Virus record (IMG/VR): IMGVR_UViG_3300045988_165036
Coordinates: 32,001-96,000 of that record
Length of the DNA: 64,000 nt
Direction: 5' to 3' (one strand)
Source: a virus
Program-made: the position numbers and the translations under genes
The notes under the pieces: generated by a model
Database searches by the model: none
What the model saw: only the letters and a program-made list of their open reading frames with translations
What the model was told of the DNA's origin: nothing
Shown: positions 14,888 through 58,159 of the stretch, piece by piece
How positions within the stretch are numbered: the first letter of the stretch is position 1
How the letters are laid out: every line of letters begins with the position of its first letter

Positions 14888-16135
14888 ATGGAAAACAAAA
14901 TTGAATACTGCTTTGTGGTTGATAAAAACAATCGGCCATTGGCGCCGACGAAAGTTAATAAAGGCTGGTATCTGGTTAGAAAAGGCAGGGCAAAAATAAA
15001 ATCCAGATATCCTATGGTAATACAGTTGGAAAAGGAAGTGGAACCTGATGAAGATGATGAAAGCCATATGGTCTGCGGTATTGATGACGGTTCTATGCAT
15101 GTAGGGCTTGCCATTGTTCAGAAATGTCCTACCAAAAATAAAGTGGTTTTTAAAGGGACGATGGAACAACGCCGGGACGTAAAACATTTAATAGATATCA
15201 GACGTGGATATAGGCGTTATCACCGTTATCATAAAAGATACAGGCAGACAAGATTTAATAACCGTTCATCTTCTAAACGAAGCAACAGGTTGGCGCCAAG
15301 TATCAGACAGAAGAAAGATGCTGTTTTAAGGGTATTGTATCGGCTTAATAAGTGGTGCAACATCCAGGAATACTTCCTTGAAGATGTCTGCATGGATGTC
15401 CGTGCAATGACAGATGGTTACAAACCCTATAGTTGGCAGTATCAGAAATCTAACCGTTTGGATGAAAACCTTAGAAAAGCCGCTATTCTGAGAGATAATT
15501 ATAAATGTCAGGAATGTGGGAAATCCGGCTGTGTGTTAGAAGTACATCATATCAGGGCAAGAAAATATGGCGGAGCAGATACCATTGGGAATCTGATCAC
15601 GTTATGTGGAAAGTGTCATGATAAAACAAAAGGCAGAGAGCGGGATTTTGAAAACAGATATTTTGATATGATCAAATCCCAGCCGAAAAAATTTGATTAT
15701 GCTATGCATGTTATGCAGGGAAAAACCTATCTGAGAGAAAAGATTTCTGAATTAGGAATATTGCATCTTACAAATGGCGGGGATACTGCTAATAAACGCA
15801 TTAACTGGAATATAGAAAAGTCCCATAGTAATGATGCGATATGCATTACAGATAGTATTCCTGATACGTGTGATGTGAAAGAATGGATTATTAAGCCAAT
15901 GAGAAGGAAGTCGAAAGCTAAAACGGATAATGTGTTAGGAATTAAGCATAGGGATTTAGTTTCTTATACATATAAAAATGGAGAAACTCATACAGGATAC
16001 GTCACTGCTTTATATCCAGAACGAGTAGCTTTGAATTTTCAATCAAAAACCAAACATTGTAAAAAAGTAAATGCGCGAAAATGCAAATTGCTTTGGAGGT
16101 TTAATAATATTTATTGGTTAGAACAACGCGTATAA
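14888..16135 (+). CDS. iscB: IscB RNA-guided nuclease (OMEGA system)
   Basis: 415 aa. PLMP-like N-terminus ([24 protein letters not shown]), RuvC-I ([15 protein letters not shown]), Arg-rich bridge helix ([22 protein letters not shown]), RuvC-II (FLEDV), HNH ([22 protein letters not shown]), RuvC-III (HSNDAICI), and a C-terminal TID-like segment. Confidence 0.9.
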
Positions 16136-21827: not shown

Positions 21828-21856
21828 TTGACAAATTAATCGTTTTGTGGTATAAT
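21828..21856 (+). promoter_or_regulatory. sigma70/sigmaA-type promoter (TG-extended -10)
   Basis: TTGACA 21828-21833, 17-bp spacer, TGgTATAAT ending at 21856. Confidence 0.75.
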
Positions 21857-21907
21857 ATATATTGCCTGGGAATCGAAAATTTTCCCCGGCAGAAAGTAGA
21901 GGATTTT

Positions 21908-22378
21908 ATGAGAAAGTTCGAAGAAGTAAGAGATGAGTTTAAAGTGTTTCCTGATGTGGAAACGAAACTCCCGGAGAGAAGTGATTCGCGAAGCGCGGGA
22001 TACGATCTTCATTCAAAAGAAGATTATGTGCTTCAGCCGGGAGAATCGCACACGTTTTGGACAGATGTGTGTGCGACAATGTTTTTTGACAATGTAATGT
22101 TTATTTTTGCGAGATCTGGTCTTGGATGTAAGAAAGGCGTTGTGCCTAGAAACTGTGTTGGCGTAATAGATCCTAGTTATTATGGGAATTCTTCGACGGG
22201 TGGAAATTTGGCTGTTTGTTTGGAAAATAACGGAGATGAACCGCTTGAAGTGAAGATTGGCGACCGAATTGCGCAAATTGTGTACTGCCGCTATCTTGTA
22301 ACTGATGATGATCGCTTTCTCTCGCGGAAGGCCGATAAGGTTGAACGCACCGGTGGATTTGGAAGCACGGGGAGGTAA
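21908..22378 (+). CDS. dut: dUTP diphosphatase
   Basis: Motifs SAGYDL, GVIDPSYYG, RIAQIV, GGFGSTG. ATG 21908 preferred over the longest ORF start. Confidence 0.85.
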   Translation: MRKFEEVRDEFKVFPDVETKLPERSDSRSAGYDLHSKEDYVLQPGESHTFWTDVCATMFFDNVMFIFARSGLGCKKGVVPRNCVGVIDPSYYGNSSTGGNLAVCLENNGDEPLEVKIGDRIAQIVYCRYLVTDDDRFLSRKADKVERTGGFGSTGR

Positions 22379-26822: not shown

Positions 26823-27007
26823 ATATACTAAATATTTATAAACAGACATTATGATATTTAGACCGTCATGTACTCGATTGGCGTGATAAGTCATTGCTTT
26901 GGTGCACATATTTTTTTAAAAAAGAAATGGAACAGAAATTCCAATCCCTTTATGGGTTGGGTGGTTCGCAAATAAAAAAATATATTCTAAAAGGAGAAAG
27001 ATTTGAA

Positions 27008-28240
27008 ATGAATAAGAAAAGGTTGAAGATTTCGGTTTATGCGATTATGAAGGATGAGGAGCAATTCTTTGAACGTTGGATCGAGTCAATGTGGGATAAT
27101 GGAGAGGGGGCAGATGAGATTTGTGTTCTTGATACCGGGTCGAAAGATGGTTGGAAAGAGGCATTATATGCTTCCGCTCGTAAATTCGAGATTCCGACAA
27201 ATAACCTGATTCTTGATCAAAAGAGATATTCTCCTTGGAGATTTGACACTCCTCGCAATGACAGTATGAAACTGATTTCGGACGATGCTGATATTTGTAT
27301 TTGCACGGATTTGGATGAGGTCCTGAAACCCGGTTGGGGAACGGAACTTCGACGGGTTGCGGAAGAGAATCTGACAGCGGGTCAGATTTATTACTATTAT
27401 GCTTGGAGCAGCGATGAAGTGACAGGAGATGCGAAACGGTATTTTTGGTATAACAAGTGTCACCGTCACCCGAAATTCGGAGTTGAATGGAAATACCCTG
27501 TTCACGAAACATTAACATATACAGATGAGTATAACGCAATGTTTCCGGACAGCGCGAGAATGACTGATAAGACAATCTGGCTGTGGCATTACCCGGATCA
27601 GACGAAGAGTCGCGGAAGTTATCTTGGGCTTCTTGAGCTTCGTGCGCAGGAGTCTCCGGATGATATGTATGGACTGTATTACCTCGCCCGCGAATATACT
27701 TTCCGTGAAATGTGGGATAAAGCAATTCAATGGGGTTCGTATCTGCTTGCTCGAATCAAGTCAACGGGAAACGATGATATGCTGATGGAGCCTGCGTTGT
27801 ATGTTCTGCTTGGAGAAAGTTACGATAAAATTGGCGCGAATGATGATTGTGAATTCTGTTATCGAGAATCAATCAAGTTGCACCCGACATACCGCGACGC
27901 ATATATTCGACTGGCACAGAAACTCGCATACTCCAACCATCCTGCGGAATGTTTCGAAGTTCTGAAGGAGATGGATGAAAAGTCCGCCAGGGTTCAGGAC
28001 TGGAGAAATCTGGACTATATGTGGAGAAATTGGAAGGTCGGTCAAATTAAGGCGGATGCATTGATGTGGATGGGCAGATACGCAGAAGCCGCTGTCGAGA
28101 TGAGATCGGCACTTTATGATATCCAATCAGATGATGATAGGCGCGAAGCACAGCAAGAAGGGTTTTACGGAGACCTGAAATTTTTGCAGGAAGAACTGAA
28201 AAAGCGTTTCCCTGATCTTGTAAAAACAGTTGAAATTTAG
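27008..28240 (+). CDS. glycosyltransferase-like N-domain plus TPR-like C-domain protein
   Basis: LKISVYAIMKDEEQFFERWIES...CVLDTGSKDG...CICTDLDE (GT2-like DxD context). Helical-repeat C-terminus. Confidence 0.6.
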   Translation: MNKKRLKISVYAIMKDEEQFFERWIESMWDNGEGADEICVLDTGSKDGWKEALYASARKFEIPTNNLILDQKRYSPWRFDTPRNDSMKLISDDADICICTDLDEVLKPGWGTELRRVAEENLTAGQIYYYYAWSSDEVTGDAKRYFWYNKCHRHPKFGVEWKYPVHETLTYTDEYNAMFPDSARMTDKTIWLWHYPDQTKSRGSYLGLLELRAQESPDDMYGLYYLAREYTFREMWDKAIQWGSYLLARIKSTGNDDMLMEPALYVLLGESYDKIGANDDCEFCYRESIKLHPTYRDAYIRLAQKLAYSNHPAECFEVLKEMDEKSARVQDWRNLDYMWRNWKVGQIKADALMWMGRYAEAAVEMRSALYDIQSDDDRREAQQEGFYGDLKFLQEELKKRFPDLVKTVEI

Positions 28241-30913: not shown

Positions 30914-32110
30914 ATGGCAAGACGCGGAAGAATTTGTGAAATGAAAAGAAAGTTTGAAGATTATGATTATGTAATTCTTGGTGTAGGCGGCATTGGTAAG
31001 ACAACGCTCGCGCATGAAGTTGGCAAGAAGATTGCTGGAAGTGACGAAGGAACTTTTATTATTACCTGTGGCGCCGAAAACGAACCAATGCACATTAATG
31101 GGGCGTTTGGAGAGACTGATAAAACCTTTGAGGAACTGGTTGAATGCGTAAATTATCTTTGCGAACATAAAGATGAATATCCACACACTAAGTTTGTTGC
31201 AATTGATTCGCTCGATGAGCTTGTGAGAATTGCGTGCGATTATGTGGTTCGCGAATGGAACAGATTGTGTGAGAAGGCAGGTAAGCCGGAAGACAAGTGT
31301 AAGAGCGTGGCGCAGGCCTATAAGGGGTTCCAAAAGGGAGAGGATCGCGCCATAGATCTGATTATTAAGCAGATCGTAAAACTGAAGGATTCCGGATACC
31401 ATCTTCTTTACATTGGCCACACGAAGGTAAAGAGTTCCACTGATGTTATGCAAGATAACACCAAATTTGATCAGCTCACGTGTAGCGTTCAGCCGAAGTT
31501 CTATAATGCAATCAAAGATAAGGCAAACCTCGCTGTGATGTGTTATTTTGAGAACGAGATTGTTGGCGTTAAAGAAGAAAAGAACCCGTTCAATAAGAAG
31601 ATGGAAAAGAAGGGTACTCTCGTGAATAAAAAGAGAGTTATGCTTTTTACAGACGATTCTAATACTGTTGATACGAAGACTCATTTTGAGTATATTGTCA
31701 ACAAGGCAGATATGAGCGCCGACAATCTTATTGAGGCGGTCGAGGATGCGATTGCCGCAAAACTTGCCGCTCCTGTTGGGGCGCATAAGTCGCCTGAAAT
31801 GGTCGAAATGGCAATGTCTGCGTCCGAGTCTTCTTCCGATGAAGACCTCGACTCAACAGACGATGCCTCTGGCGTTGACGACCTCGACCCAGACACTTCC
31901 AACGTCGATCTCGATATGGACAATGCGGACACTGCTCCGACCATCGACAATCTTCGCGCGGAGATTCAGGGAAAGCTTCGTACAGCAAGCGCAGAGGTGA
32001 AGAAGAAGGCAAGAGAAATTCTGATTACCGAAGCGGCAGACCCGGAGAAGGTCAAGTTGGCGGATGCGACGGTTGAAACGCTGAACAAGATCCTTGCAAT
32101 TCTGGATTGA
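30914..32110 (+). CDS. Sak4-like P-loop ATPase (recombination)
   Basis: Walker A GVGGIGKTT, Walker B FVAIDSLDE, acidic S/D-rich C-terminal region. Confidence 0.6.
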   Translation: MARRGRICEMKRKFEDYDYVILGVGGIGKTTLAHEVGKKIAGSDEGTFIITCGAENEPMHINGAFGETDKTFEELVECVNYLCEHKDEYPHTKFVAIDSLDELVRIACDYVVREWNRLCEKAGKPEDKCKSVAQAYKGFQKGEDRAIDLIIKQIVKLKDSGYHLLYIGHTKVKSSTDVMQDNTKFDQLTCSVQPKFYNAIKDKANLAVMCYFENEIVGVKEEKNPFNKKMEKKGTLVNKKRVMLFTDDSNTVDTKTHFEYIVNKADMSADNLIEAVEDAIAAKLAAPVGAHKSPEMVEMAMSASESSSDEDLDSTDDASGVDDLDPDTSNVDLDMDNADTAPTIDNLRAEIQGKLRTASAEVKKKAREILITEAADPEKVKLADATVETLNKILAILD

Positions 32111-32472: not shown

Positions 32473-32571
32473 AACCGCATTCAACCAATAAGACAGTAAA
32501 TAAGTGAGGGATCTGTTCAAGAACTTTATAGACGGAAGACACTCGACTCCGCTCTTTCTCCGTATAACGCA

Positions 32572-33270
32572 ATGCGTCTGTGTTGTGATAGCGAAGAGCA
32601 CCCCGAAACAGTCCCTGTTATTCTTGCACTCGATGTAACGGGGTCTATGGGTAAGGCGGCGGAAAAAATCGCTAAAAAGCTCAATGTTATTATGACGAAG
32701 CTTTTCGGGGAAGTAAAAGATATCGAGTTTATGACGATAGGAATTGGAGATCTCGCATATGATTCCTATCCGATTCAGGCAACGCAGTTTGAATCCGATA
32801 TTCGAATTGCGGAACAGCTTGGAAAGATTTATTTCGAATTTGGTGGTGGTACGAATCCGTATGAATCATATACCGCCGCGTGGTATTTCGGACTTCATAA
32901 CACGGAACTTGATTGTTGGAAGCGTAACAAGAAAGGTATTATCGTAACTATTGGCGACTAATTTATCAACCCGATTCTGCCGTATAGAAACCTAAATGCC
33001 ATTCTTGGAAGTTCGGAACAGTCTGATGTTGAAACAAAGGCTCTTTACGAAGAGGTAGCGAAGAAGTTTGATGTTTATCATATCGACATTTCGCACCGTA
33101 CCAGATATTCGGAAGACGAACTTCATAAGTCTTGGGCTATTCTTGGAGATCATTATATCAGATCTGATCTCAATAGCACAGTAGATAACATCATTGATGT
33201 GATTAAGCGTTCGGTTGATGGCATTAGCACTGGAAATGTTTCTGTCGGAGCGGACGGAATTAGTTGGTAA
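32572..33270 (+). CDS. von Willebrand factor A domain protein interrupted by one in-frame TAA (32959-32961)
   Basis: MIDAS context VILALDVTGSMG. After ..IIVTIGD-TAA the same frame stays open for 102 more codons (FINPILPYRNLNAILGS...VGADGISW*) with no start codon of its own. The 5' start is also uncertain. Confidence 0.6.
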
Positions 33271-33288
33271 AATATAGGAGATAATAAA

Positions 33289-34452
33289 ATGTTGGAAAGC
33301 GTTAAATTTGTAATCGGGTCCAATTTTGGAGACGAGGGAAAAGGTCTTGTAACAAATTATTTTTGCGAACAGGCTTTTGCTAATGAGAAGAAGTGTGTAA
33401 ACATTTTGACAAATGGCGGTTCTCAAAGAGCTCACACGGTTGAATTCCCCGATGGCAAAAGACACGTTTTCCAACATTTTGGTTCTGGAACATTTTCGGG
33501 AGCGATTACTTTTCTTTCTGGGTTTTTCATTGTTAATCCAATGACTTTCCGAACAGAGCATCAAACGCTTCTAAATATAGGAGAACATCCGGTCGTATTG
33601 TGTGATTATCATTGCCGATTTTCCACACCGTGGGATATGATGATTAATCAAATTGTCGAAGCAAGTCGCGGCGATAAAAAGCACGGTTCTTGTGGAATGG
33701 GAATTTGGGAGACGGTTGATCGGTACGGAACCAAAAATGGAATCACTATTGCCGACATCTACTATTTAAGCCGTGAATCAAGACGGTTGTATTTAAGCGG
33801 TCTTCGAGACAATTATTTCAAAAATAGATTGGAAAAATATGGGATGAAGAAAGTTCCCGATGAATGGTCGGAAATTTGGTATTCTCCAATTTTACTCGAA
33901 AATTTTCTAAACGATTTAGCCTATTTCTTTTTGAATGTTCAATTGGAATATTCGACGGCGATTAAGAAATTCGATACGGCAGTCTTTGAAAACGGACAGG
34001 GACTTTTGTTGAGCAATCCAATGTATGGAGATAACACAACTCCCTCCAACACTGGAGCAACATATGGAGCGTCAATTCTGTGGGAGCTCGGATTAGAAAA
34101 TGTAGACACCGAACTTTGCTATGTTTCTCGAACATATATGACACGCCACGGAGCCGGAGATTTTATTACGGAAAGCAAAAGTTCGACATTTGGTGGGCTT
34201 GTGGATAAAACTAATATTTCAAATCCATTTCAGGGGTCTTTGAGGTATGGAGATTTGAATACGAAGGGTTTGTTTGAGCGAGTGCGAGCAGACAGTGAAG
34301 AGGCTTCAAGAAAGTTGCATAATGTTAAAACGTCTGTTATCTTTACGCACACTAATGAATTGGGAATTGATTTGAATGGAATAAAATGTTCTGGAATTGA
34401 TACCATTTATGGCTCTGATTCTCCCTTTTCGGATTCAATTAAAATGATTTAA
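33289..34452 (+). CDS. divergent adenylosuccinate synthetase-like enzyme (PurA/PurZ family)
   Basis: N-terminal P-loop IGSNFGDEGKGLVTNYF, GGSQRAHTV in place of PurA GGHNAGHT, HGSCGMGIWET in place of GTTGRGIGP. 387 aa. Confidence 0.75.
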   Translation: MLESVKFVIGSNFGDEGKGLVTNYFCEQAFANEKKCVNILTNGGSQRAHTVEFPDGKRHVFQHFGSGTFSGAITFLSGFFIVNPMTFRTEHQTLLNIGEHPVVLCDYHCRFSTPWDMMINQIVEASRGDKKHGSCGMGIWETVDRYGTKNGITIADIYYLSRESRRLYLSGLRDNYFKNRLEKYGMKKVPDEWSEIWYSPILLENFLNDLAYFFLNVQLEYSTAIKKFDTAVFENGQGLLLSNPMYGDNTTPSNTGATYGASILWELGLENVDTELCYVSRTYMTRHGAGDFITESKSSTFGGLVDKTNISNPFQGSLRYGDLNTKGLFERVRADSEEASRKLHNVKTSVIFTHTNELGIDLNGIKCSGIDTIYGSDSPFSDSIKMI

Positions 34453-34460
34453 AAACTTTC

Positions 34461-34488
34461 AAAACCCTCTTGACAACGAGAGGGTTTT
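34461..34488 (+). terminator. terminator-like hairpin whose loop carries the -35 box
   Basis: aaaaccctct (34461-34470) pairs perfectly with agagggtttt (34479-34488). Loop is tgacaacg. 3' T-run present. Confidence 0.5.
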
Positions 34489-34498
34489 GTGTTATACT
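34470..34498 (+). promoter_or_regulatory. sigma70/sigmaA-type promoter
   Basis: TTGACA 34470-34475, 17-bp spacer, TATACT 34493-34498. Confidence 0.75.
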
Positions 34499-34528: not shown

Positions 34529-35071
34529 ATGTTGAATATTGGTTATTTGACTTCTGATACAACCGCTTGCGGGGATGAGATGTATACCCCGTTTTATGCA
34601 GTTGCGCCTCTTGTCAAGCACTTGAAGAATAGCGGGTATAAAACCATTTGGTGTCCGTTTGACGAGGAGTGGAGCGCGTATGTCAGAATGTTCAAAGAAG
34701 AGGGGTTTAACGTTATTCGGAGCTTGTTGTCTGATGGAAAAGACTTCTTTCAATATGAGCCCGACGAGCCGTATGATGTTATTATTAGTAATCCGCCGTT
34801 TTCAAAAAAAGACGAGGTTATTCGCCGACTTGATGAACTCGGAAAACCGTTCGCGATTCTCCTTCCGTTAAATAGTTTACAGGGGAAGTCACGATTTGAT
34901 GTTTTCAAAAATGGAATTCAACTTTTGAGTTTTGACCAACGTATCGGATTTCATACTCCAAAAAGTATGAAGACGCCCCTTGAGGGCAGCCCGTTTGCAT
35001 CTGCGTATTTTTGCCGAGATTTCTTGCCGAGATTTCTTGCCGAGAGACTTGATTGTAGAGCGGTTGGATAA
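34529..35071 (+). CDS. small NPPF-motif methyltransferase (putative N6-adenine type)
   Basis: VIISNPPFSKKDE carries the amino-methyltransferase motif IV. The 3' end is altered by a 13-bp tandem duplication. Confidence 0.5.
   Translation: MLNIGYLTSDTTACGDEMYTPFYAVAPLVKHLKNSGYKTIWCPFDEEWSAYVRMFKEEGFNVIRSLLSDGKDFFQYEPDEPYDVIISNPPFSKKDEVIRRLDELGKPFAILLPLNSLQGKSRFDVFKNGIQLLSFDQRIGFHTPKSMKTPLEGSPFASAYFCRDFLPRFLAERLDCRAVG
35012..35045 (+). repeat. 13-bp tandem duplication (2.6 copies)
   Basis: tgccgagatttct at 35012-35024 and 35025-35037, then partial copy tgccgaga at 35038-35045. Confidence 0.9.
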
Positions 35072-37759: not shown

Positions 37760-38038
37760 AAAAAAATAATTTTATTTGGAGGATATTGTGGTCAACCGCC
37801 CAGTTTCCTAAATGAGATGTGGGCTTGAGTAATCGAGCCCACTGATTGATCAGACTAAGTGTTTCGAGCACTACGTTATCAAAGAATATATAGGCACCGT
37901 TGGATGTACTCTCCAGTCTGACGCACTGCGGTATGTGATTAAACAGTTCTGATGGGTAGGAACAGTGTTGCATACGAAAACCTTTGAATAACATTGTCGT
38001 GGAGTAACTACTCTAACATACAGGAGGTTATAGAAACA
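37760..38038 (+). ncRNA. candidate IscB omegaRNA (locus 2)
   Basis: ~280-nt non-coding stretch 5' of the second iscB. Shares ACTACGTT (37870-37877) and GGATGTACTCtcCAGTCTGAcGCaCTGCG (37902-37930) with locus 1. Hairpin gtgggcttgagtaatcgagcccac. Confidence 0.65.
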
Positions 38039-39286
38039 TTGGTGTATGTGTTAAACAAACAAAGTAATCCCTTGATGCCTTGTAAAGAAGCAAAAGCAAG
38101 AAAATTGCTAAAACAAAATAAAGCTATTATAGTAAAATATGAGCCATTTACAATTCAATTGACTTTTGAGTGTGAAAATCAAACGCAAGAAATTTCTCTC
38201 GGAGTTGATGCTGGAAGTAAACACATTGGCATTTCTGCAACAACAGAGAAACAAGTTTTGTATGAAGCAGACGTTGAATTAAGAAACGATATCGTAGATA
38301 AACTCTCTTCTCGTAGAGAAGCAAGAAGAACGAGAAGAAACAGATTGAGATATCGTCCCACAAGATTCAACAATCGAGTTCATTCAAAACACAAAGGTTG
38401 GCTTGCTCCAAGCATCGAGCAGAAAATCAATTCGCATATTCAGGCAATCAAAAGACTTCATCAAATTCTTCCGATTTCAAAAATTATTGTGGAAACGGCG
38501 CAGTTTGATATTCAAAAAATTCAGAATCCAGATATTGAAGGAGAACAATATCAACAAGGTGATCAAATGGGGTTTTGGAATGTACGTGAATATGTGCTTT
38601 TCAGAGATGATCACAAGTGTCAGTATTGTAAAGGAAAATCTAAAGACAATCGATTAAATGTTCATCATATTGAGGGTCGTAAGACGGGCGGAAACGCTCC
38701 GAATAATTTAATTACGTTGTGCGAAACCTGCCATAATGATTATCATCAAGGGAAAATTCAGCTAAATATTAAGCGCGGAAAGAGCTTTCGAGATGCGACA
38801 TTTATGGGCATTATGAGAAAGACATTGTTGTTGAGATTAAGGGAAATATATCCGAATGTTCAAGAAACTTTTGGTTATATTACGAAGAACACCAGAATTG
38901 AAAATAGTCTTCCGAAAGAACATTATATAGACGCAAGATGTATTAGTGGAAATCCTTTAGCAAAACCGTTAGGATATTATCTTTATTAAAAATGTGTTAG
39001 AAGACAAAATCGTAAAATGACGAAAGATAATTTTATCAGAGGTGGAGTTAAAAAAAGTAATCAGTTAGTTGGCGATGTCTTCGGATTTGGGTTATTTGAT
39101 ACGGTTGAATATCAAAAGAAGAAGTATTTTGTGTTTGGTAAACGAAAATCTGGATTTCTGGACATTAGAACACTTGATGGAGAAAAAGCTAACAACGGCT
39201 CTATAAGCTACAAAAAACTAAAATTAATTCAAAAGAATAATAATATATTAACAGAAAGGAGTTTGTCAATTCCTACGCAACCATAA
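38039..39286 (+). CDS. iscB: IscB RNA-guided nuclease with one in-frame TAA (38987-38989)
   Basis: PLMP (QSNPLMPCKEAKARKLL), RuvC-I (GVDAGSKHIGISA), bridge helix (RREARRTRRNRLRYRPTRFNNR), RuvC-II (IIVETAQ), HNH (CQYCKG..VHHIEG..NLITLCETCHND), RuvC-III (HYIDARCI). After ..GYYLY-TAA the same frame continues KCVRRQNRKMTKD... (TID-like) to 39286. Confidence 0.85.
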
Positions 39287-39525: not shown

Positions 39526-39613
39526 AATAGTAGAAATGAAAGATTGGCTTTATTTACAAAGGATTTTTGAAAAGGAGAGAAAAAAATGACTATTGTTGAC
39601 TTTTATAAGAAAG

Positions 39614-40801
39614 GTGAAAGCGATTATAAAAACAATTCGAGTAATGTTGCTTCCAAACAACAAACAGCAAACTAAATTATTTCAATATGCCAATACTGCT
39701 CGTTTTGCTTATAACTGGGCAATAGGAAGAGAACAAGAAAATTATAAGAATGGTGGAAAATTTATATCTGATGGAGACTTACGAAAAGAGTTTACACAAT
39801 TAAAGAAAACTTCTGAATATGCGTGGCTAAACAATGTTTCTAACAATGTAACAAAGCAAGCAATTAAAGATGCTTGTGAGGCGTACAAAAATTTCTTTAA
39901 GGGAATTACAAAGTCCCCACGATTTAAGAGTAAGAAATATTCAATGCCGAAATTCTACCAAGATAATGTAAGAATTCAGTTTACAGACACACATGTAAAG
40001 ATTGAGGGTTTTGCTACGTCTAAGAAAAAGAATAAGCAAAGACTTAACTGGATAAGACTTGCCGAACGCGGAAGAACACCTATTGGAAATACAAAGTATA
40101 TGAATCCACGCATTAAATATGATGGACTTAATTGGTATATCACAGTTGGAATTGAATACGAAAATTCTACCGCTCCTCCAACCAACGAAGGTGTTGGAAT
40201 CGATTTAGGCATTAAAGATTTGGCAATATGTTCTGACAAGAACAAGTATCAGAATATAAACAAAACCCAAAGAGTTAAGAAGTTAGAAAAAAGAAAGCGC
40301 AGGCTACAACGTTCCATATCAAGAAAATATGAGAATAATAAGAAAGGAGAGCGTTACTGCAAAACAAGCAATATTATAAAAAGTGAAAAAGAACTTTTAA
40401 AATTGAATCACAGACTAACGAATATTCGTCAGAACTACCTACATCAAACAACATCTGAAATTGTAAAACGAAAACCAAGTTTTATCTGTATGGAAGATTT
40501 GAATGTGAGTGGAATGATGAAGAATAAACATTTGTCTAAAGCAGTTCAGCAACAAGGGTTTTATGAATTTAGGAGACAGATTGAATATAAGTCTGAGTGG
40601 AATAACATTCCAGTAATTATAGCAGATAGATTCTTCCCGAGTTCTAAGTTATGTAGTTGTTGTGGAAATATCAAAAAGGATTTGAAACTTAGCGACCGCA
40701 TTTACAAGTGTGAATGTGGAAATATCATAGATAGAGATTATCAAGCAAGTCTAAATCTGAAAAGACATGGAGAAATGTTATTAGAACAATCTGCATTATA
40801 A
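39614..40801 (+). CDS. tnpB: TnpB RNA-guided nuclease (IS200/IS605 OrfB family)
   Basis: RuvC triad contexts GIDLGIKD / CMEDLN / IDRDYQASLN. Zn-ribbon CSCCG..CECG. N-terminus IRVMLLPNNKQQTKLFQ. GTG 39614 chosen as start (the longest ORF starts at TTG 39593). Confidence 0.9.
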   Translation: MKAIIKTIRVMLLPNNKQQTKLFQYANTARFAYNWAIGREQENYKNGGKFISDGDLRKEFTQLKKTSEYAWLNNVSNNVTKQAIKDACEAYKNFFKGITKSPRFKSKKYSMPKFYQDNVRIQFTDTHVKIEGFATSKKKNKQRLNWIRLAERGRTPIGNTKYMNPRIKYDGLNWYITVGIEYENSTAPPTNEGVGIDLGIKDLAICSDKNKYQNINKTQRVKKLEKRKRRLQRSISRKYENNKKGERYCKTSNIIKSEKELLKLNHRLTNIRQNYLHQTTSEIVKRKPSFICMEDLNVSGMMKNKHLSKAVQQQGFYEFRRQIEYKSEWNNIPVIIADRFFPSSKLCSCCGNIKKDLKLSDRIYKCECGNIIDRDYQASLNLKRHGEMLLEQSAL

Positions 40802-40977: not shown

Positions 40978-41988
40978 ATGCTCACAGATGTTAAACAAAT
41001 GTTAATAGAAAACCCAGAGCACATCGTGGAATTGCTCGAAAGGTTTGAGTTCTGCCACATCCATCTCAAACGAACAGAAATTCGGTTTGCCCGTAACGAA
41101 GAAGGTGGTCAGAACATCTCAATTCGGCTCGAAGATAATCCTTCAATTTATGTTAAAGATTTCGTAACAAATGAGAACGGCGACATTATCGCGTATATAA
41201 TGAAAAGTCGTTCGGTGAAGTTTGTCGAAGTCTTGTCGGAAATCAAGAGCGTTCTCGGGCTTGGAGACGATTGGGAGCCCCCAAAGCGCGATATGTTGTT
41301 CGGTGGATTTTATGACCGAATTGGAGAGGATAGACATATTGAGATTACGACGTATCCCGAATCGATTATGGACCAATATGTCGATAAGGGAAATCGGCGC
41401 TGGCTCGATGATAACATTTCACTTGCGGTTCAGCACGAGTTCGGGGTCAGATTTGACCCGATAGAAGACCTGATTGTGTTTCCGTGGAGGTCGCCCGTCG
41501 GAGGAGAGATTATCGCAGTAAAAGCTCGCGTTAATCACCCGTTGGAAGATGGTCAACAGAAATATTGGTATGTTTACAAGGGCGCCGTCAGTAATTCTCT
41601 TTATGGTATTATGGAGAATTATAGCGGACTGTTTGGAAACGAAATTTGTGTTGTTGAAAGCGAAAAAGCCGTCCAGCAACTGGCGACAATGGGATATCGA
41701 AACACAGTGGCTCTTGGGTCGAGCAATTTGTCAGAGGAGCAGGCTCGGCTAATTATGACGCTTTCTCCGACTTCCGTTGTGTTCTTGTTGGACGAAGGAC
41801 TGGAAAAGGAACACACGATGAAAAATGTGGAAACATTGCGTCAGTATTGCGTATTAAGAGATTTGCCGATTCGTTGGTGGAATTGGACGAAAAGCTCGGT
41901 TGTTGATGGGAGCGGGAAGAATAGTCCGACCGATTTGGGGAAAGAGAGGTTTGACAAGGTTATGAGAGAGGAGCTAGAAGTGATTTAA
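40978..41988 (+). CDS. TOPRIM-domain DNA primase
   Basis: VVESEKAVQQLATMGY (TOPRIM Glu) and VVFLLDEGLE (DxD-like). Lies upstream of the polymerase. Confidence 0.6.
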   Translation: MLTDVKQMLIENPEHIVELLERFEFCHIHLKRTEIRFARNEEGGQNISIRLEDNPSIYVKDFVTNENGDIIAYIMKSRSVKFVEVLSEIKSVLGLGDDWEPPKRDMLFGGFYDRIGEDRHIEITTYPESIMDQYVDKGNRRWLDDNISLAVQHEFGVRFDPIEDLIVFPWRSPVGGEIIAVKARVNHPLEDGQQKYWYVYKGAVSNSLYGIMENYSGLFGNEICVVESEKAVQQLATMGYRNTVALGSSNLSEEQARLIMTLSPTSVVFLLDEGLEKEHTMKNVETLRQYCVLRDLPIRWWNWTKSSVVDGSGKNSPTDLGKERFDKVMREELEVI

Positions 41989-42947
41989 TGGGCGCATTTA
42001 AAGATATAACTGGACAGCAATTCGGAGACTTCATCATCGACTCTTTTGACCCGACAAAAGGTAAGTATAAATATTATTGGAATTGTCATTGTGTAAAATG
42101 TGGTTATAAAAAATCAGTAGAAGGAAGCAGTATTAGAGCCGGAAATAGTACAAGATGTATTTGTGATAAGTCTTTTGGACGAAGAGAAAGTCTCGGATAC
42201 GAAAAAGATATATCTGGAAAAGTTTATGGTGGTTTAACTGTTTTGGGCTATTGCGACACGAAAAGCACACGTTCAAGATGGCTGTGTAAATGCAATTGTG
42301 GGAACGAGGAAGTTTTTAGTATTTCACAATTAAAAAGAAGAAAAAATCTGATGTGTTCCCAATGTGTGGAAAAATATAAAGATATAAGAAATGTGATTTC
42401 AGAAGAAAATTTAGACTCTAATGGGATTCCAATAAATATTGTTCAATCTACTCAAAGAAAACAAAACAAATATGAAATTCAAAACGATGAGACTATTATC
42501 AACGATAAAATTATTGTAGATAGTAAGTTTATGGATTGTTTGAAATCATTCGATAGATACATTAGTATAGACAGCCGTGGATATGCATATTTTTCATATT
42601 GTGGTCAAGATGTATATTTACACAGACTTTTGACAAACACCTCATTATTTTTCGATACGAATGGCAAAGACATAGAAATAATCGATCATATAAACAGAAA
42701 TAGATGCGATAACAGAATTGAAAATTTAAGAACGATTAAAAAATCTGAAAACTCCATCAATTGTTCAGTATATTCAAATAATAAAAGTGGGTATAAAGGT
42801 ATTTCTTGGCTTGAAAGATTACAAAAATGGCAAGTGAACATTCAATACAGAAAGATAAATTATTATGTTGGCGTGTTTGAAAATATTGATGATGCAATTT
42901 TAGCAAGAAAACGAGCAGAAATGGATTTATTTGGAAAGGTGAATTAA
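41988..42947 (+). CDS. HNH-AP2 homing endonuclease (free-standing)
   Basis: IDHINRNRCDNRIENLR (HNH_3-type) and SGYKGISWLERLQKWQVNIQYRKINYYVGVF (AP2-type). N-terminal Cys-rich repeats. Confidence 0.8.
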   Translation: MGAFKDITGQQFGDFIIDSFDPTKGKYKYYWNCHCVKCGYKKSVEGSSIRAGNSTRCICDKSFGRRESLGYEKDISGKVYGGLTVLGYCDTKSTRSRWLCKCNCGNEEVFSISQLKRRKNLMCSQCVEKYKDIRNVISEENLDSNGIPINIVQSTQRKQNKYEIQNDETIINDKIIVDSKFMDCLKSFDRYISIDSRGYAYFSYCGQDVYLHRLLTNTSLFFDTNGKDIEIIDHINRNRCDNRIENLRTIKKSENSINCSVYSNNKSGYKGISWLERLQKWQVNIQYRKINYYVGVFENIDDAILARKRAEMDLFGKVN

Positions 42948-42949
42948 AA

Positions 42950-45900
42950 ATGCAAAATCTTCATCGGCATACTTCGTATTCAAATGTTTGTATTGCAGAT
43001 TCTGCGGCAACAAATGAACAATATGCCAAAAGAGCGGTAGAATTGGGTCACAAAGTAATTAGTAGCGTCGAGCACGGGTGGCAGGGATATTATTATCAAT
43101 GTTATGAACTTGCTCAAAAATATAATCTCAAATTTGTTTTTGGAGCAGAGGCATATTGGGTAAAAGACAGGAAAAAAGAATATGAAGAAATTGATCCATT
43201 GACAGGAGAACCGTTAAAAAATAAAGACGGAACAATAAAGGCGCATAAAGATAACTCTAATTGTCATATATTACTTCTTGCAAAAACAGAAATCGGAAGA
43301 CGCGCCATCAACAAAATTCTTTCAGAGGCAAACGAAACGGGGTATTATTTTAGACCCCGTGTCGATCTCGAACTTCTTCTTTCCCTCCCTCCTGACGATG
43401 TGGTCGTAACAACTGCTTGTGTGGCATATTGGAAATATGAAGATATCGAAGATATTACTCTTCGGTTGTGGAAACATTTTGGAAAAAACTTTTATCTGGA
43501 GATCCAAGCGCATAAAACAGAACAACAGAGAGAAATCTCCCGTAGAATTCTTTCCTTGTCGCGAAGATATGGAATTGAAATGATTGTTGGTCTTGACAGT
43601 CATTACATTTATCCGGAACAGGCACAGGAGAGAGAATATATTCTTGAAGCAAAAGACGTCCATTATAAAGACGAAGAGGGGTGGTATATGGACTATCCCG
43701 ACGACGAAGAGGTTATGAGACGTTTTATGGAGCAAGGAGTTTTTACAAGGGAACAGGTTCAAAGAGCGATGGATAACACGGACATCTCTCTAACGTTTGA
43801 TGATTATGCAAAAGACAATCCTGTTTTCAGCAAAGATATTAAACTTCCTACTCTTTATCCGAATCTTTCACAAGAAGAAAGAAACAAAAAATATAGTGTT
43901 CTGATTAGTAAGCTTTTTAGAGAGTATGCAGAGAAACATCACATTACGGGAGAAGAGTATAAGAGATATCTTGAAGGAATCAAAATGGAAGTTCAGACGG
44001 TTAAAGATACCGGAATGGCCGATTACTTCCTTCTCGACTATGAAATCGTCAAAAGAGCGATTGAAAAAGGGGGCGTTTTGACAGACAGTGGAAGAGGATG
44101 TTTTACGTCTGACGCAATGGCTTTAACGATGGGCGGAATCAAACATATTAACGAAGTTAAAGTTGGAGATTTTGTAATAGATCAAAACGGAAATCCGCAA
44201 AAAGTTGTTAACACAATGGAATATGATTGCGATGAGGAAATAGTTCAACTTCTTTATGCATATGGACCAAATACTCATAATCCATTGATTTGCACAAAAG
44301 ATCACAAGATCTTGATTCATAGAAACGGGCAAAATTCTTGGATTGAAGCCGGGAAAATTCAGCAAGGAGACTATGTTTGTTCTCCGAAAATTCATTTCGA
44401 AAATCGAGCACCTGAATATATTGATTTAAATGATTATAATGTTTTTGGGTATGATTTTGACGACGAATACATTTACGAATATCGTCCAGCTGCAAATGGT
44501 GTTGTTGAATTTAACTCCATTGATGTTTCTAAACACATTGGATGTTCCAAGCCGTGGGTTTTGCAAGTCGTTAAAAATCCTAATCGCACGAAGTTTAAGC
44601 ATCCCGAATATGTGGACAGATTATTGAAATATACCGGATTTAGTTCTCTTCAAGAATATAGGGATTATTTAAAAAACTCTCATGTTATCAAGATTAAGAG
44701 ATTTATAAAAAACGACGAGCTGTTCAACACGTGGATTGGTATGATGTATGGCGATGGATGGGTTCGCGGCGCGAAAGAATCTACAGAGGTTGGAATGGCG
44801 TTTTCTACCTATGGACACAAACAGTCTTACAACAGAGAGATTTGTATTAAAATGATCGAACGTTTTGGTGCTCCGTATAATTGTGCCATCCATAAAACAA
44901 AACAATTGGAACAAATTATTATGAAGAGCCGCATCGTTAATGAATTTTGTAAAAATTTTCTATTCACAAGTAAGAAGGGAAAGGCAAAAATCTTTAATCA
45001 AGATTTATTTTATCAATCCGAAAATAACTTAAGCGCGCTATTAAACGGTTTAACGATTACTGATGGGAGCATGGGAAAAGAAAAAAGAAGAGACAGCTTT
45101 GACAACACGTCTCAAAGCATTGTTGGAGCATATAAAATTTTAGTGTCGGCAGTCTCTCCTTGCCCCACAAGTCTGCTTGTCAGAAACGCATACGAAGATA
45201 GTAGAGGATATCATTCTCAGACTGGTTATAAAATAAGAGTTATGAAAGATACGGACACTCATGTGCTTTCGGCGTATAGAACTCTTTCTGACAACAACTA
45301 TGTTTATCTTCCTGTTTCTCAAATTAAGGCAATTGAGAAAAGCAAACGAAAAGTATATGACATTACCGTTGAAAATTCCCACAGTTATGTATTAGATAGC
45401 ATAGTTGTTCATAATTCATCAGTTGGATATTTCACAAACACTCTTCTTGGTTTTTCAAAAGTCGATAGATTTCAAAGTCCGATAACTCTTTATCCTGAAC
45501 GATTTATTAGTAAAACAAGAATTCTAGAAACCCATTCTCTTCCAGATATTGATATGAACTGGGGAACCCCCGAAATTGCAGAAGAAGCACAGAAAGAAAT
45601 TCTTGGAGACGACCACGCAATTCCAATGATCGCCTTCGGAACCTGTAAAAAGAAGTCGGCGTTTAAATTGTTCGCTCGTTCTCAAAATATGGATTTCGAA
45701 CTGGCAAACACCATCTCTTCGCAAATTGCAGATTATGAAGAAGCAGTTAAAAACGCAGAAGATGATGATAAAGATCAGATTGATATTTATGATTTTGTAG
45801 ATAAAAAATATTCCAACTATATTGAACAGAGCAAAAAGTATTGGGGCATTATTATGGATAAGAAGAAAGCTCCTTGTGCCTTTCTTCTTTATCAAGGCAA

Positions 45901-47554
45901 TATCCGAGAAGAAATTGGTCTGATTAAATGTAAGTCGGAATCAACAGGAAAAGAATTTTTAACAGCCGTTGTAGACGGAGCGATTGCAGAAAATTATAAA
46001 TTTCTAAAAAACGATATTCTTTGTGTAAGTATTGTTCTTTTGGTTGATAAGATTTATCGTAGAATTGGAATTCCGCACAAAACGGTTGAAGAACTGAAAG
46101 ATTTCGTTAAAAACGATCCAAAAACTTGGGACATTTATAAAAACGGATATACTCTTGGGGTTAATCAGTGTGAGCAAGTAAGTTCTGCAAAGAAAATGAT
46201 GCGCTTTCAAGCAAAAAACATTTCAGAACTTTCGGCGTGGATTGCCGCAATTCGCCCTGCTTTCAAGTCGATGTACTCCAAGTTTGAATCGAGGGAATCT
46301 TTTAGTTATGGAATTCCTGCCTTTGACAAACTCCTACAGACAGAAGAACTTCCGCAGTCGTGGATTTTGTATCAGGAGCAGTCGATGTCTGTTCTTTCGT
46401 ATGCAGGATTTCCGATGGATGAATGTTATGGAATCATAAAGGCAATTGCTAAAAAACACCCCGAAAAGGTTCGTCCGTTGAAGGATAGATTTATCGAAGG
46501 ATTCAAAAAGAGGATTGTTACAGAGGAAGGAATTGAAGAAACTCAAGCGCAGGAAATGAGCGAACGGGTTTGGCAAATCATCAACGACTCTTGCGGGTAC
46601 GGTTTCAATTCTGCTCACGCATATTGTATGGCAATCGATAGTCTTTCTTGCGCAATGTTGAAAGCGAATTATCCATACGAATTTTATGAGGTGCTTTTAC
46701 AGTTCCATTCAGATAGAGGAGAAAAAGATAAGGTTGGCGCTCTAAAAGCGGAAATGAAAAAGGCTTTTGGAATTCAAGAAGGTCCATATCGATTTGGAGA
46801 AGATAACCGAAAGTTTAATGCAATTCCGGAAAGAGGAATTATTCAACCGTCTCTCTTGTCAATTAAGGGATTGAGTCAGGATTTGGCAAACGACCTTTAT
46901 GAACTTTCTAAAACAAAACGATTCGATAATTTTATAGACCTGTTGAGAGAATTCGATCATATGAAATCAATGAATGTTGCGAAGTTGGATACATTGATTA
47001 AACTCAATTATTTCTCGCAATTCGCACCTATTGGAAAACTTCTGAACATTGTCGAGCTCTATAATAAGTTCGGAACCAGCAAAACACTCAAAGAATCTGA
47101 CGTTTTGTCTCTTCCAACGCCTATTCAAGAAGTTATTGCAAAATATACCGTTAAACCGAAAACACAGTATAAAATCACAGATAGCGACGGAATGCTCCGG
47201 GAACTCGCGGGGTTGGTTGGAGAACGCCCGATTACGATGATGATGCGGCTGGAATGGGAGCAACAGTATTTGGGTTATTGCGCTTCTACCGACCCATCGC
47301 AACAGGGAAGTTGGTTAGTTCTGGACGCCGATACTAAATATTCTCCGAAGTTGACAATTTTTTCTATTTGGAGTGGAGAACAGCGTGTTGTTAAAGTCTC
47401 GAAGCGCGACTTCCAATCCAATCCTCTCACCAAAGGTGATACAATTCGTCTGACTATCGAACAACGTCCGAAGGCGAAGCTCGTAGATGGACAGTGGGTT
47501 AAGGACGAAAACGTTAAAGAAGATTGGCTAAAATATTATTCAATTGTAAAGTAA
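42950..47554 (+). CDS. dnaE: DNA polymerase III alpha (DnaE-type) precursor containing an intein
   Basis: PHP domain (NLHRHTSYSN...SSVEHGW). Pol III core SGRG/SSVGYFTNTLLGFSKVD is split by the intein. 1534-aa ORF. Confidence 0.9.
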   Translation: MQNLHRHTSYSNVCIADSAATNEQYAKRAVELGHKVISSVEHGWQGYYYQCYELAQKYNLKFVFGAEAYWVKDRKKEYEEIDPLTGEPLKNKDGTIKAHKDNSNCHILLLAKTEIGRRAINKILSEANETGYYFRPRVDLELLLSLPPDDVVVTTACVAYWKYEDIEDITLRLWKHFGKNFYLEIQAHKTEQQREISRRILSLSRRYGIEMIVGLDSHYIYPEQAQEREYILEAKDVHYKDEEGWYMDYPDDEEVMRRFMEQGVFTREQVQRAMDNTDISLTFDDYAKDNPVFSKDIKLPTLYPNLSQEERNKKYSVLISKLFREYAEKHHITGEEYKRYLEGIKMEVQTVKDTGMADYFLLDYEIVKRAIEKGGVLTDSGRGCFTSDAMALTMGGIKHINEVKVGDFVIDQNGNPQKVVNTMEYDCDEEIVQLLYAYGPNTHNPLICTKDHKILIHRNGQNSWIEAGKIQQGDYVCSPKIHFENRAPEYIDLNDYNVFGYDFDDEYIYEYRPAANGVVEFNSIDVSKHIGCSKPWVLQVVKNPNRTKFKHPEYVDRLLKYTGFSSLQEYRDYLKNSHVIKIKRFIKNDELFNTWIGMMYGDGWVRGAKESTEVGMAFSTYGHKQSYNREICIKMIERFGAPYNCAIHKTKQLEQIIMKSRIVNEFCKNFLFTSKKGKAKIFNQDLFYQSENNLSALLNGLTITDGSMGKEKRRDSFDNTSQSIVGAYKILVSAVSPCPTSLLVRNAYEDSRGYHSQTGYKIRVMKDTDTHVLSAYRTLSDNNYVYLPVSQIKAIEKSKRKVYDITVENSHSYVLDSIVVHNSSVGYFTNTLLGFSKVDRFQSPITLYPERFISKTRILETHSLPDIDMNWGTPEIAEEAQKEILGDDHAIPMIAFGTCKKKSAFKLFARSQNMDFELANTISSQIADYEEAVKNAEDDDKDQIDIYDFVDKKYSNYIEQSKKYWGIIMDKKKAPCAFLLYQGNIREEIGLIKCKSESTGKEFLTAVVDGAIAENYKFLKNDILCVSIVLLVDKIYRRIGIPHKTVEELKDFVKNDPKTWDIYKNGYTLGVNQCEQVSSAKKMMRFQAKNISELSAWIAAIRPAFKSMYSKFESRESFSYGIPAFDKLLQTEELPQSWILYQEQSMSVLSYAGFPMDECYGIIKAIAKKHPEKVRPLKDRFIEGFKKRIVTEEGIEETQAQEMSERVWQIINDSCGYGFNSAHAYCMAIDSLSCAMLKANYPYEFYEVLLQFHSDRGEKDKVGALKAEMKKAFGIQEGPYRFGEDNRKFNAIPERGIIQPSLLSIKGLSQDLANDLYELSKTKRFDNFIDLLREFDHMKSMNVAKLDTLIKLNYFSQFAPIGKLLNIVELYNKFGTSKTLKESDVLSLPTPIQEVIAKYTVKPKTQYKITDSDGMLRELAGLVGERPITMMMRLEWEQQYLGYCASTDPSQQGSWLVLDADTKYSPKLTIFSIWSGEQRVVKVSKRDFQSNPLTKGDTIRLTIEQRPKAKLVDGQWVKDENVKEDWLKYYSIVK
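44099..45415 (+). mobile_element. intein with LAGLIDADG homing endonuclease domain (439 aa)
   Basis: Starts with Cys right after SGRG (CFTSDAMALTMGG). Block B TKDHKIL. LAGLIDADG motifs WIGMMYGDGW and LLNGLTITDGS. Ends VVHN, followed by Ser +1. Confidence 0.85.
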
Positions 47555-56978: not shown

Positions 56979-57043
56979 ATGAATTGCGCTTAGAATGTTA
57001 TAAATTAAACAATATATTAAAAATCAAAAAGGAGGTGAAGGGC

Positions 57044-58159
57044 GTGGAAAAGGCTTATAAATACCGCATATACCCAAACGAACGGCAAAAAGAAATAATT
57101 GCAAAAACATTTGGTTGTTGCCGATTTGTATATAACAAATATCTTGCAGAAAAGATTGAATTATATAAAACCGAAAAGAAAAACATAACATATGTTAAAT
57201 GTGCAAAAGCAATGTCTGAATTGAAAAACGAGCTTGAATGGCTTACGGAAGTCGATTCCACGGCTCTTCAATCCTCGTTAAAAGACTTAGATAACGCTTA
57301 TAAAAAATTTTTCAAAGAACATGCGGGTTATCCAAAATTCAAAAGCAAGAAAGATAATCATAAGTCTTACAAATCTAAATACACAAATGGTAATATAGAA
57401 TATCTGAACAACCACATTAAACTACCGAAACTTGGTTTGGTAAAAACGAGAAACAAGTTAATACCGCAAGGAAGGATAGTTAATGCAACAATATCACAAG
57501 AACCAACTGGAAAGTATTTTGTATCGTTGTGTTGTGTGGGCGTGAATATTCAGCCATTACCAACCACAAACAATTTGGTCGGTATAGATTTGGGGATTAA
57601 AGAATTCTGTATAACCAGTGATGGTGAGCTTGTGAACAACCCGAAATATCTTAAACAATCTCTTGACAAGCTTGCGAAAGTGCAGAGAGAACTATCTCGA
57701 AAAACAAAAGGTGGCTCTAACCGCAATAAAGCAAGAATAAAAGTTGCGAGATTGTACGAGAAGGTTTCTAATCAACGAAGAGACTTTTTGCAAAAACTTT
57801 CAACGCAAATAATAAAAGAAAATGACATGATTTGTCTCGAAGATTTGCAAGTTAAGAATATGGTTAAAAACCATAAACTTGCACGAGCAATCAACGATGT
57901 TTCTTGGTCGGAGTTTGTAAGAGAATTAGAATATAAAGCTCGTTGGTATGGAAGGACGGTAATTAAAGTCAGCAAATTCTTTCCGAGTTCACAGACTTGC
58001 AGTATTTGCGGTTGTAAAAATGCAGAAACAAAAAGTCTTAAGGTTAGAGAGTGGGATTGCCCCGTTTGTCACGCACACCATGACAGAGATGTAAATGCGG
58101 CGATAAATATTTTAAACGAAGGATTAAATGTTTGGCGGAATGAGAAAAATATGTTATAA
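57044..58159 (+). CDS. tnpB: TnpB RNA-guided nuclease (IS200/IS605 OrfB family)
   Basis: N-terminus [17 protein letters not shown]. RuvC triad contexts GIDLGIKE / CLEDLQ / [10 protein letters not shown]. Zn-ribbon CSICG..CPVC. SD aaaggagg 7 nt before GTG 57044. Confidence 0.9.

Follow-up and report, generated by a model that had tools for sequence, protein, structure and literature searches.

A PurA-like gene of a large phage belongs to a third clade of the adenylosuccinate synthetase superfamily, distinct from PurA and PurZ and linked to an upstream vWA-like gene

What does a divergent adenylosuccinate synthetase homolog do in a phage: does it supply adenylate as cellular PurA does, start the synthesis of 2-aminoadenine as PurZ does, or carry out some other reaction? 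The question is raised by an intact open reading frame (ORF) of 387 amino acids (aa) with an ATG start at positions 33289..34452 (+ strand) of a 64,000-nucleotide stretch of virus DNA, here called the window (positions 32,001 to 96,000 of IMG/VR record IMGVR_UViG_3300045988_165036). An earlier interpretation made from the letters alone, the sequence-only reading, took the product for a divergent PurA/PurZ-like protein and saw in its neighbors, a putative adenine methyltransferase gene and a vWA gene, a hint of a genome containing 2-aminoadenine (a Z-genome) or of another modification of DNA bases or the purine pool. Our analyses place the gene in a large uncharacterized third clade of the PurA superfamily, distinct from PurA and from PurZ/PurZ0; this clade occurs mostly on phages and prophages, and its conserved partner is the vWA-like gene directly upstream.

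The protein scores 90 bits (E=1.7e-25) with the Pfam profile for adenylosuccinate synthetase (PF00709), whose cut-off is 27, in a match that spans profile positions 2-280 of 416 only, and PHROGs family phrog_1211 matches it at E=1.2e-47; judged by these profiles, membership in the adenylosuccinate synthetase superfamily is far beyond chance. The three motifs picked out by the sequence-only reading were each located in the ORF, all on the + strand. The P-loop GDEGKG (aa 14-19, 33328..33345) contains Asp15, the equivalent of the catalytic base Asp13 of Escherichia coli PurA, whose numbering is used below for comparisons between families. GGSQRAHTV (aa 43-51, 33415..33441) keeps the catalytic His41 as His49 and has Gln46 in place of Asn38, a contact of the 5'-phosphate of inosine monophosphate (IMP), and HGSCGMGIWET (aa 132-142, 33682..33714) has Cys135 for Thr129 and Met137 for Arg131. 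Farther along, FENGQG (33985..34002) keeps the base contact Gln224 as Gln237; TRHGAG (34141..34158) has His287, invariant across the clade, for Val273; and FQGSLRYG (34228..34251) occupies the place of the aspartate loop GATTGRRRRTG. The guanine-specificity motif (N/T)KxD, of which the sequence-only reading had seen no clear example, has zero occurrences in the whole protein and is found within the last 120 aa of 5/120 relatives; at the aligned place of TKLD the window protein has THTNE (aa 353-357, 34345..34359), with Lys331 replaced by His and Asp333 by Asn. The PF00709 score and the clade-wide residue changes described below bear out the description of the protein as a divergent phage-borne superfamily member with altered substrate-site motifs. 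Comparison with four relatives gave dN/dS values of 0.07-0.11, evidence of strong purifying selection on the gene.

Models built for the named enzymes scored far below their cut-offs. The NCBIfam PurA equivalog models (TIGR00184 and NF002223 among them) gave 41-70 bits against cut-offs of 368-700, the best results being 69.9 against 395.55 and 67.3 against 402 and the rest lower, and the NCBIfam PurZ model NF038379 gave 17.7 bits against 300 in a match confined to residues 5-67. Identity is 22-23% to PurA and 16-20% to PurZ. A sequence search of the PDB found bacterial PurA at E ~1e-11 and no PurZ chain with E <0.01. In a neighbor-joining tree of 23 sequences and 347 columns, with three cellular PurA sequences as the sample, a bootstrap value of 100 was obtained for PurA as a clade, for PurZ together with PurZ0, and for the branch that separates the window clade from PurA+PurZ; clustering with housekeeping PurA was looked for, and the three PurA sequences grouped without the window clade (bootstrap 100). 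The AlphaFold model of the protein (predicted local distance difference test [pLDDT] 88.3; predicted template modeling score 0.90) had 42 significant Foldseek matches in the PDB, all PurA or PurZ. Ranks 1-24 were all PurA (TMq up to 0.76), and PurZ/PurZ0 followed from rank 25 (TMq 0.51-0.64); the predicted fold is thus closer to bacterial PurA than to PurZ. Of the PurA/PurZ placement in the sequence-only reading, membership in the superfamily stood, and a grouping with PurZ fell with the 100% bootstrap split.

The clade is large, with 3509 clusters at 50% identity (E<=1e-30), and its best 150 representatives hold no domain fusion that would reveal a substrate; all are single-domain proteins of ~250-480 aa, mostly 370-450. 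Searched against phage genomes by tblastn, the window protein matched a gut phage (42% identity), RHph_TM30-like Rhizobium phages, Va1-like Vibrio phages, and 201 cluster C mycobacteriophages. The PurZ of phiVC8 retrieved a disjoint set, consisting of Arthrobacter, phiVC8-like Vibrio, Acinetobacter, Microbacterium, and Gordonia phages.

The hallmark position of PurZ sets the clade apart from that enzyme. Serine replaces the Asp13 of PurA in 100% of 147 phage PurZ proteins, and aspartate is kept in 99% of cellular PurA (PMC12884076); this replacement is also given as the PurZ hallmark in bioRxiv 10.1101/2025.10.22.683976. The window protein and 124/124 relatives have aspartate there, and 5/5 PurZ/PurZ0 references have serine. 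We therefore consider it very improbable that the enzyme is of the PurZ type, which would condense dGMP with aspartate as the start of dZTP synthesis and give phage DNA with 2-aminoadenine. What favors that explanation is partly a matter of names: phrog_1211 is called "2-aminooxy adenylosuccinate synthetase," and RefSeq phage records (e.g., NC_070966 and NC_041993) give clade members the same label, apparently inherited from phrog_1211 and, by the Asp13 criterion, a misannotation. Lack of NKxD and asparagine at the Asp333 position are both as in ATP-using PurZ, and the window holds a dUTPase-family gene at 21845-22378 (+ strand). Dut-like enzymes replace MazZ/DatZ in PurZ0 phages, where they hydrolyze dATP and dGTP (PMC12884076); nothing in the window points to such an activity for this gene. 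The PurZ model score, the disjoint phage sets, and the position of the clade outside the PurZ group argue against PurZ as well. DatZ, MazZ, and DUF550 were not found among the scanned ORFs of the window, nor were MazG, HD, and PolA genes among those of 19.6-64 kb, in agreement with the sequence-only reading, which had seen no MazG/HD partner; the window probably represents only part of the phage genome. As its replicase, the window encodes a DnaE-type Pol III alpha, not PolA/DpoZ. The window enzyme very probably does not make 2-aminoadenine, and the Z-genome interpretation was abandoned.

The chemistry of the clade was approached through a survey of residues in 124 members and the five PurZ/PurZ0 references. 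In E. coli PurA, the residues that the clade keeps catalyze transfer of the phosphoryl group to the 6-oxo group and bind both base and 5'-phosphate. P-loop residues Gly12, Lys16, and Gly17 are kept in 124/124 members, as are Asp13, His41, Gln224, Thr239, and Arg272; Arg306 is kept in 123/124, and Arg143, supplied by the dimer partner, in 123/124 by two of three alignments. A second comparison was limited to the 35 positions at which three PurA and five PurZ/PurZ0 sequences all have the same residue, positions that are thus independent of the choice between IMP and dGMP or between GTP and ATP; the clade keeps 17 of them. Clade-wide changes include Asn38 to Gln, Thr129 to Cys, and, in 15/15 diverse members, Val273 to His and Arg305 to Gln, together with the loss of Thr301; both T301 and R305 are altered in all 15, in a region that is alignment dependent. 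A profile-profile alignment shows a deletion of the aspartate-loop residues GATT, with G/S/L in place of RRR(303-305). FQGSLRYG lacks the Thr300/Thr301 segment and has other residues instead of Arg303 and Arg305, the equivalent of Arg306 being the sole arginine kept, whereas PurZ, which likewise uses aspartate, retains the loop as TTVTKKVRR. At the guanine site, the Lys331 and Asp333 changes are accompanied by absence of the C-terminal Ser414/S-T-G-P segment.

This pattern suggests an enzyme in which only half of the PurA reaction is conserved. The first half-reaction, in which the gamma-phosphate of a nucleoside triphosphate (NTP) moves to the 6-oxo group of a purine nucleoside monophosphate that resembles IMP and lacks a 2-amino group, would be retained, since the P-loop lysine, the Asp13 base, the His41 acid, Gln224, Thr239, and, putatively, Arg143 are kept. 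The donor is probably not specifically GTP, because the guanine-specificity residues are gone. The second half would be altered: the attacking amine is probably other than aspartate, because the clade lacks the loop with which PurA and PurZ bind L-aspartate.

A rival explanation is an ordinary auxiliary PurA. Such an enzyme would convert IMP, L-aspartate, and an NTP to adenylosuccinate, with host PurB completing the pathway, and could serve to provide more AMP/dATP for an A+T-rich genome or to refill adenylate pools that are depleted in the course of infection or by ATP- or NAD-depleting defenses. The complete set of first-step catalytic residues, Asp13 included, is consistent with this explanation, as are the bacterial PurA identity of the closest solved structures, the location of the gene among those for dUTPase, NrdD, NrdG, DnaB, and Pol III alpha, and the occurrence of relatives near NAD-salvage or ADP-ribose-sensing genes (NrtR-like in 55/80 genome loci, Nampt in 11 loci). 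It has to contend with a score of 70 bits against an equivalog cut-off of 395, with the deletion or replacement in all members of T300, T301, R303, and R305, which PurA and PurZ have in common, with the clade-wide changes at N38, T129, and V273, and with an obligate vWA-like partner, which is no feature of PurA. We regard an auxiliary PurA as possible but rather unlikely.

The clade has a conserved genomic partner. A vWA-like gene lies directly upstream on the same strand in 78/80 IMG/VR loci and in 74/75 loci with room among the 80 from bacterial genomes and metagenome-assembled genomes, so that the relevance given to the vWA neighbor by the sequence-only reading was upheld; the vWA link is real and strong. 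In the IMG/VR loci its product, of ~290 aa, begins with MGGGxW, carries the metal ion-dependent adhesion site (MIDAS)-like motif LDVTGSMG as well as QFESDIRIAEQL, GGGGNxYESY, and TIGDE, and ends in ISW. The gene before it encodes, in 74/80 viral loci, a Met-rich protein that is highly conserved, ~200 aa long, and acidic in its tail. An alternative first gene, present in 31 loci, encodes ~340 aa with a J-domain bearing the HPD motif (DnaJ 19-25 bits, just below the cut-off) and a kinase-like part that lacks the catalytic Asp, and matches Sebata gp260 (Pkinase E=1.7e-9). The operon order is therefore the Met-rich or J-domain/kinase-like gene, then the vWA/MIDAS-like gene, and the PurA-like gene last. 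Cultured phages have the vWA-like/PurA-like pair as well: Rhizobium phage RHph_TM30 (gp018/gp019), Vibrio phage Va1 (038/039), and mycobacteriophage Sebata (gp261/gp263). Distant Met-rich counterparts are TM30 gp016 and an unannotated ORF of Va1; the latter (L010:4237-4962, ~240 aa; L numbers denote the loci compared) is directly upstream of Va1_038, and ~1 kb further upstream, at L010:3227-3886, is an ORF that by eye resembles a NADAR/YbiA domain. Profile searches of Pfam, PHROGs, NCBIfam, PADLOC, and the PDB gave no significant match for the two partner proteins, the best PDB matches (TssA at E 0.12 and eIF5A at E 0.9) being noise. Fragmentation of the vWA-like gene was considered as a feature of the clade and rejected: what had looked like second fragments were 103-aa ORFs of another kind that single-linkage clustering had grouped together, and the gene is full length in 78/80 cases.

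A pairing this strict is also what one might expect if the PurA-like protein were a regulatory or assembly NTPase, working with the vWA/MIDAS protein as a nucleotide-driven partner, in analogy to MoxR-vWA pairs, with ligase chemistry lost or secondary and the Met-rich or J-domain protein supplying chaperone-like client binding. Both alternative first genes look chaperone related (Met-rich tails, or a J-domain with the HPD motif), and the kinase-like partner, as read from the sequences, lacks the catalytic Asp. A plain NTPase switch would not, however, need Asp13, His41, Gln224, and Thr239, which serve purine activation only and are invariant, and the vWA fold that the analogy calls for is weakly supported. 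We judge this explanation improbable.

The reading that we favor, if by a modest degree, is that the window gene encodes a PurA-type ligase of the third clade, predicted to be active, with an IMP-like substrate and a second substrate other than aspartate, within a vWA-linked operon; the vWA-like partner would most likely bind or regulate the enzyme or its target. Several observations weigh against it. The equivalent of Arg143 depends on the alignment, being R145 in two and K149 in a third. Because the C-terminal third of the clade aligns poorly to PurA, loss of the aspartate loop is deduced from alignments and from a part of the model where confidence is lower (pLDDT 68-78), and aspartate could be bound instead by the invariant N309, N312, Q315, and R319. 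The upstream vWA-like gene belongs to phrog_2971 (function unknown) and has no Pfam hit; its AlphaFold model has a pLDDT of 58 and matches vWA/I-domains in Foldseek at E 3e-4, so that the predicted fold match is weak and suggestive. In the window itself the partner genes are broken while the enzyme gene is intact, and the enzyme may hence work without them. A literature search found neither a characterized clade member nor a link between vWA and PurA; NARP3 proved to be unrelated.

A more far-reaching form of the favored reading can be offered tentatively, and we think it rather unlikely. The clade may join an activated inosine-type nucleotide to ammonia, to another amino acid, or to an amine on the vWA-like or Met-rich partner, yielding either an N6-substituted purine nucleotide of a new kind or an adduct of nucleotide and protein. 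The module might then be a widespread metabolic or counterdefense device of large phages and prophages, which in many prophage-like loci is perhaps switched by an NrtR-like regulator. Genes for NrtR-like proteins (NUDIX plus NrtR winged helix) occur no farther than 6 kb from the module in 55/80 genome-derived loci, and flank it in 0/80 IMG/VR loci; Nampt is nearby in 11 loci overall, and DUF4291 also recurs (genome loci L096-L175). The recurring NrtR-like and Nampt genes hint at a link to ADP-ribose/NAD metabolism. Among NrtR-like examples (L127:7405-8298, L151:3255-3983, and L130:2580-3437), the Nudix box is degenerate in some (RKLREK) and intact in others (REVREE). One locus on the Clostridium carboxidivorans P7 chromosome (L160, 2352025-2365062) has J-domain/kinase-like, vWA-like, and PurA-like genes in surroundings that by eye are not phage-like, with DUF2382-like stress proteins, an amine-oxidase-like flavoprotein, and HxlR-type regulators; the module may thus extend beyond phages.

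The damage to the partner genes in the window can be described precisely. The first part of the vWA-like gene (32500..32958, + strand), truncated at its 5' end, covers profile positions 32-181; its first ATG is at 32572, and the MIDAS-like motif (DVTGSMG, or LDVTGSMG in full) lies in the ORF 32572-32961, in agreement with the vWA neighbor of the sequence-only reading. An in-frame TAA (32959..32961, + strand) stands where intact relatives have Glu in TIGDE, and the second part (32962..33270, + strand) continues in the same frame over profile positions 184-277 to its end in GISW. Hidden Markov model (HMM) searches matched the two parts within 32500-33270 at E 9e-85 and 4e-23. Upstream, at the deletion junction (32481..32512), ~30 bp replace ~790 bp of relatives L002-L004; the ~790-bp deletion removes the whole ~200-aa Met-rich gene and the first ~33 vWA-like codons, and an HMM search found no remnant of a Met-rich or J-domain/kinase-like first gene in the window. 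In relatives whose PurA-like protein is 88-97% identical, the genes of 195-203, 285, and 387 aa are intact; the closest relative, L093 (97% identical), has all three, and the first gene is intact in L094 and L095 as well. In L004, the vWA-like gene is likewise split (93 + 192 aa). Recoding of the stop codon was rejected, as TAA also terminates the vWA-like gene itself and relatives have GAA or GAG (Glu) at the site. Relaxed selection after the damage was not seen either, omega against the 97%-identical relative being 0.11 for the PurA-like gene and 0.14 for the vWA remnant. As no relaxed selection is seen, the damage is recent or an assembly artifact, and the vWA-like gene of the window would appear to be either a fresh pseudogene or such an artifact.

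A ribosome-binding site, AGGAG (33276..33280, + strand), lies 5 nucleotides 3' of the vWA-like stop codon and 8 nucleotides 5' of the PurA-like ATG. Beyond the PurA-like gene, the sequence-only reading had drawn a link to a putative adenine methyltransferase gene. The small NPPF methyltransferase-like ORF that it named is there (34529..35071, + strand), but in its own transcription unit: a terminator-like 13-bp hairpin (34460..34489, + strand) lies directly 3' of the PurA-like stop codon, and a near-consensus promoter, TTGACA-17-TGnTATACT (11/12; 34470..34498, + strand), lies 5' of the methyltransferase-like gene. Genes downstream of the PurA-like gene vary among relatives, and the methyltransferase-like gene is an incidental neighbor, not a conserved partner. 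As the gene is not conserved at this place and has its own predicted promoter behind the hairpin that ends the unit, the methyltransferase link found no support. The promoter-like element CTCTTGACA-N-TGnTATAaT has four copies in the window (28344, 34467, 39494, and 58727), against a chance expectation of none; that at 34467 overlaps the 13-bp hairpin, and a similar ~55-bp stretch recurs in relatives (L002 16044-16096).

The window belongs to a large tailed phage; every called gene is on the + strand, GC skew is positive in each 2-kb bin of 1-64000, and the cumulative skew climbs monotonically. Related contigs are 140-230 kb long. The left part is a tail module with the tape measure and tail proteins, into which an HNH gene is inserted. 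In the right part, a nucleotide and replication block, the module is preceded by genes for dUTPase, NrdD, NrdG, a glycosyltransferase/TPR protein, RNA ligase, and a Sak4-like ATPase, and the PurA-like gene is followed by those for the methyltransferase-like protein, DnaB, primase, Pol III alpha, a PD-(D/E)XK nuclease, RecD2, ClpP, and a beta-CASP nuclease. The glycosyltransferase/TPR protein (26894-28240, 448 aa) has weak family-2 glycosyltransferase and TPR matches and is also found in L002-L004. Pol III alpha (42950-47554, 1534 aa) has PHP, NTPase, finger, and HHH domains and an intein (Intein_splicing/HINT, ~aa 390-822); in relatives it is intein free and 1026-1054 aa long. An IscB-like ORF (RRXRR + HNH; 37994-38989) adjoins a TnpB gene (HTH_OrfB, OrfB_IS605, Cas12f1-like TNB; 39593-40801), a second TnpB gene lies at 56984-58159, and 39600-40000 has 82% DNA identity to Enterocloster phage CB457P1. 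HNH homing-endonuclease-like genes occur in the tail and replication modules (14888-16135, 41988-42947, and 1229-2017). With HNH genes, intein, IscB, and TnpB, the window is unusually rich in selfish elements. A close relative of the module is found in the Mediterraneibacter hominis NSJ-55 genome, in a context that resembles the same phage type; as most genomic relatives come from Lachnospiraceae, this is the likely host family.

Setting the clade apart corrects the PurZ mislabel, under which hundreds of phages, among them cluster C mycobacteriophages and jumbo-size Rhizobium and Vibrio phages, are wrongly taken to have Z-genomes; the other label in databases is "PurA-like." The clade is abundant in phages of gut Lachnospiraceae and strongly constrained, and its tie to the vWA-like gene extends to phages from three bacterial phyla. 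Should the second substrate prove new, the classic purine-pathway fold would have a third type of reaction and, if true, this might be a new phage strategy for nucleotide pools or host defense.

Among known systems, PurA itself (EC 6.3.4.4; PF00709; E. coli 1ADE/1CG0, Bacillus anthracis 4M9D) has the same fold (Foldseek TMq 0.72-0.76) and shares GDEGKG with the catalytic Asp, His41, Gln224, Thr239, and, in two of three alignments, Arg143; the window protein differs in being ~45 aa shorter, in lacking TKLD and the C-terminal STGP, in the deletion or replacement of the aspartate loop, and in belonging to a clade nearly always paired with a vWA-like gene. PurZ and PurZ0 (N6-succino-2-amino-2'-deoxyadenylate synthase; phiVC8 6FM1, S-2L 7ODX, and PurZ0 7VF6) are likewise phage-borne, shortened PurA homologs without NKxD, and ATP-using PurZ also has Asn at the Asp333 position. 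The window protein, however, has Asp and not Ser (Ser14 of phiVC8) at the hallmark position and lacks the TTVTKKVRR loop, and the partner of its clade is a vWA-like gene, whereas those of PurZ are DatZ/MazZ/DpoZ or DutZ/DmtZ. MoxR-vWA and TerY-type vWA/kinase modules resemble the locus by architecture alone, with an NTPase or kinase-like gene beside a MIDAS-bearing vWA gene; here a PurA-fold SIMIBI-class enzyme takes the place of the AAA+ MoxR, and there is no PP2C phosphatase. A further counterpart is the "PurA-like adenylosuccinate synthetase" of cluster C mycobacteriophages (e.g., Sebata gp263). Although the mycobacteriophage proteins, at 442 aa, exceed the window protein in length and have retained Asp at the Asp333 position, and the first gene is J-domain/kinase-like and not Met-rich, they fall in the same clade with 28% identity, and the Sebata genes follow the same order of kinase-like (gp260), vWA-like (gp261, phrog_2971), and PurA-like (gp263).

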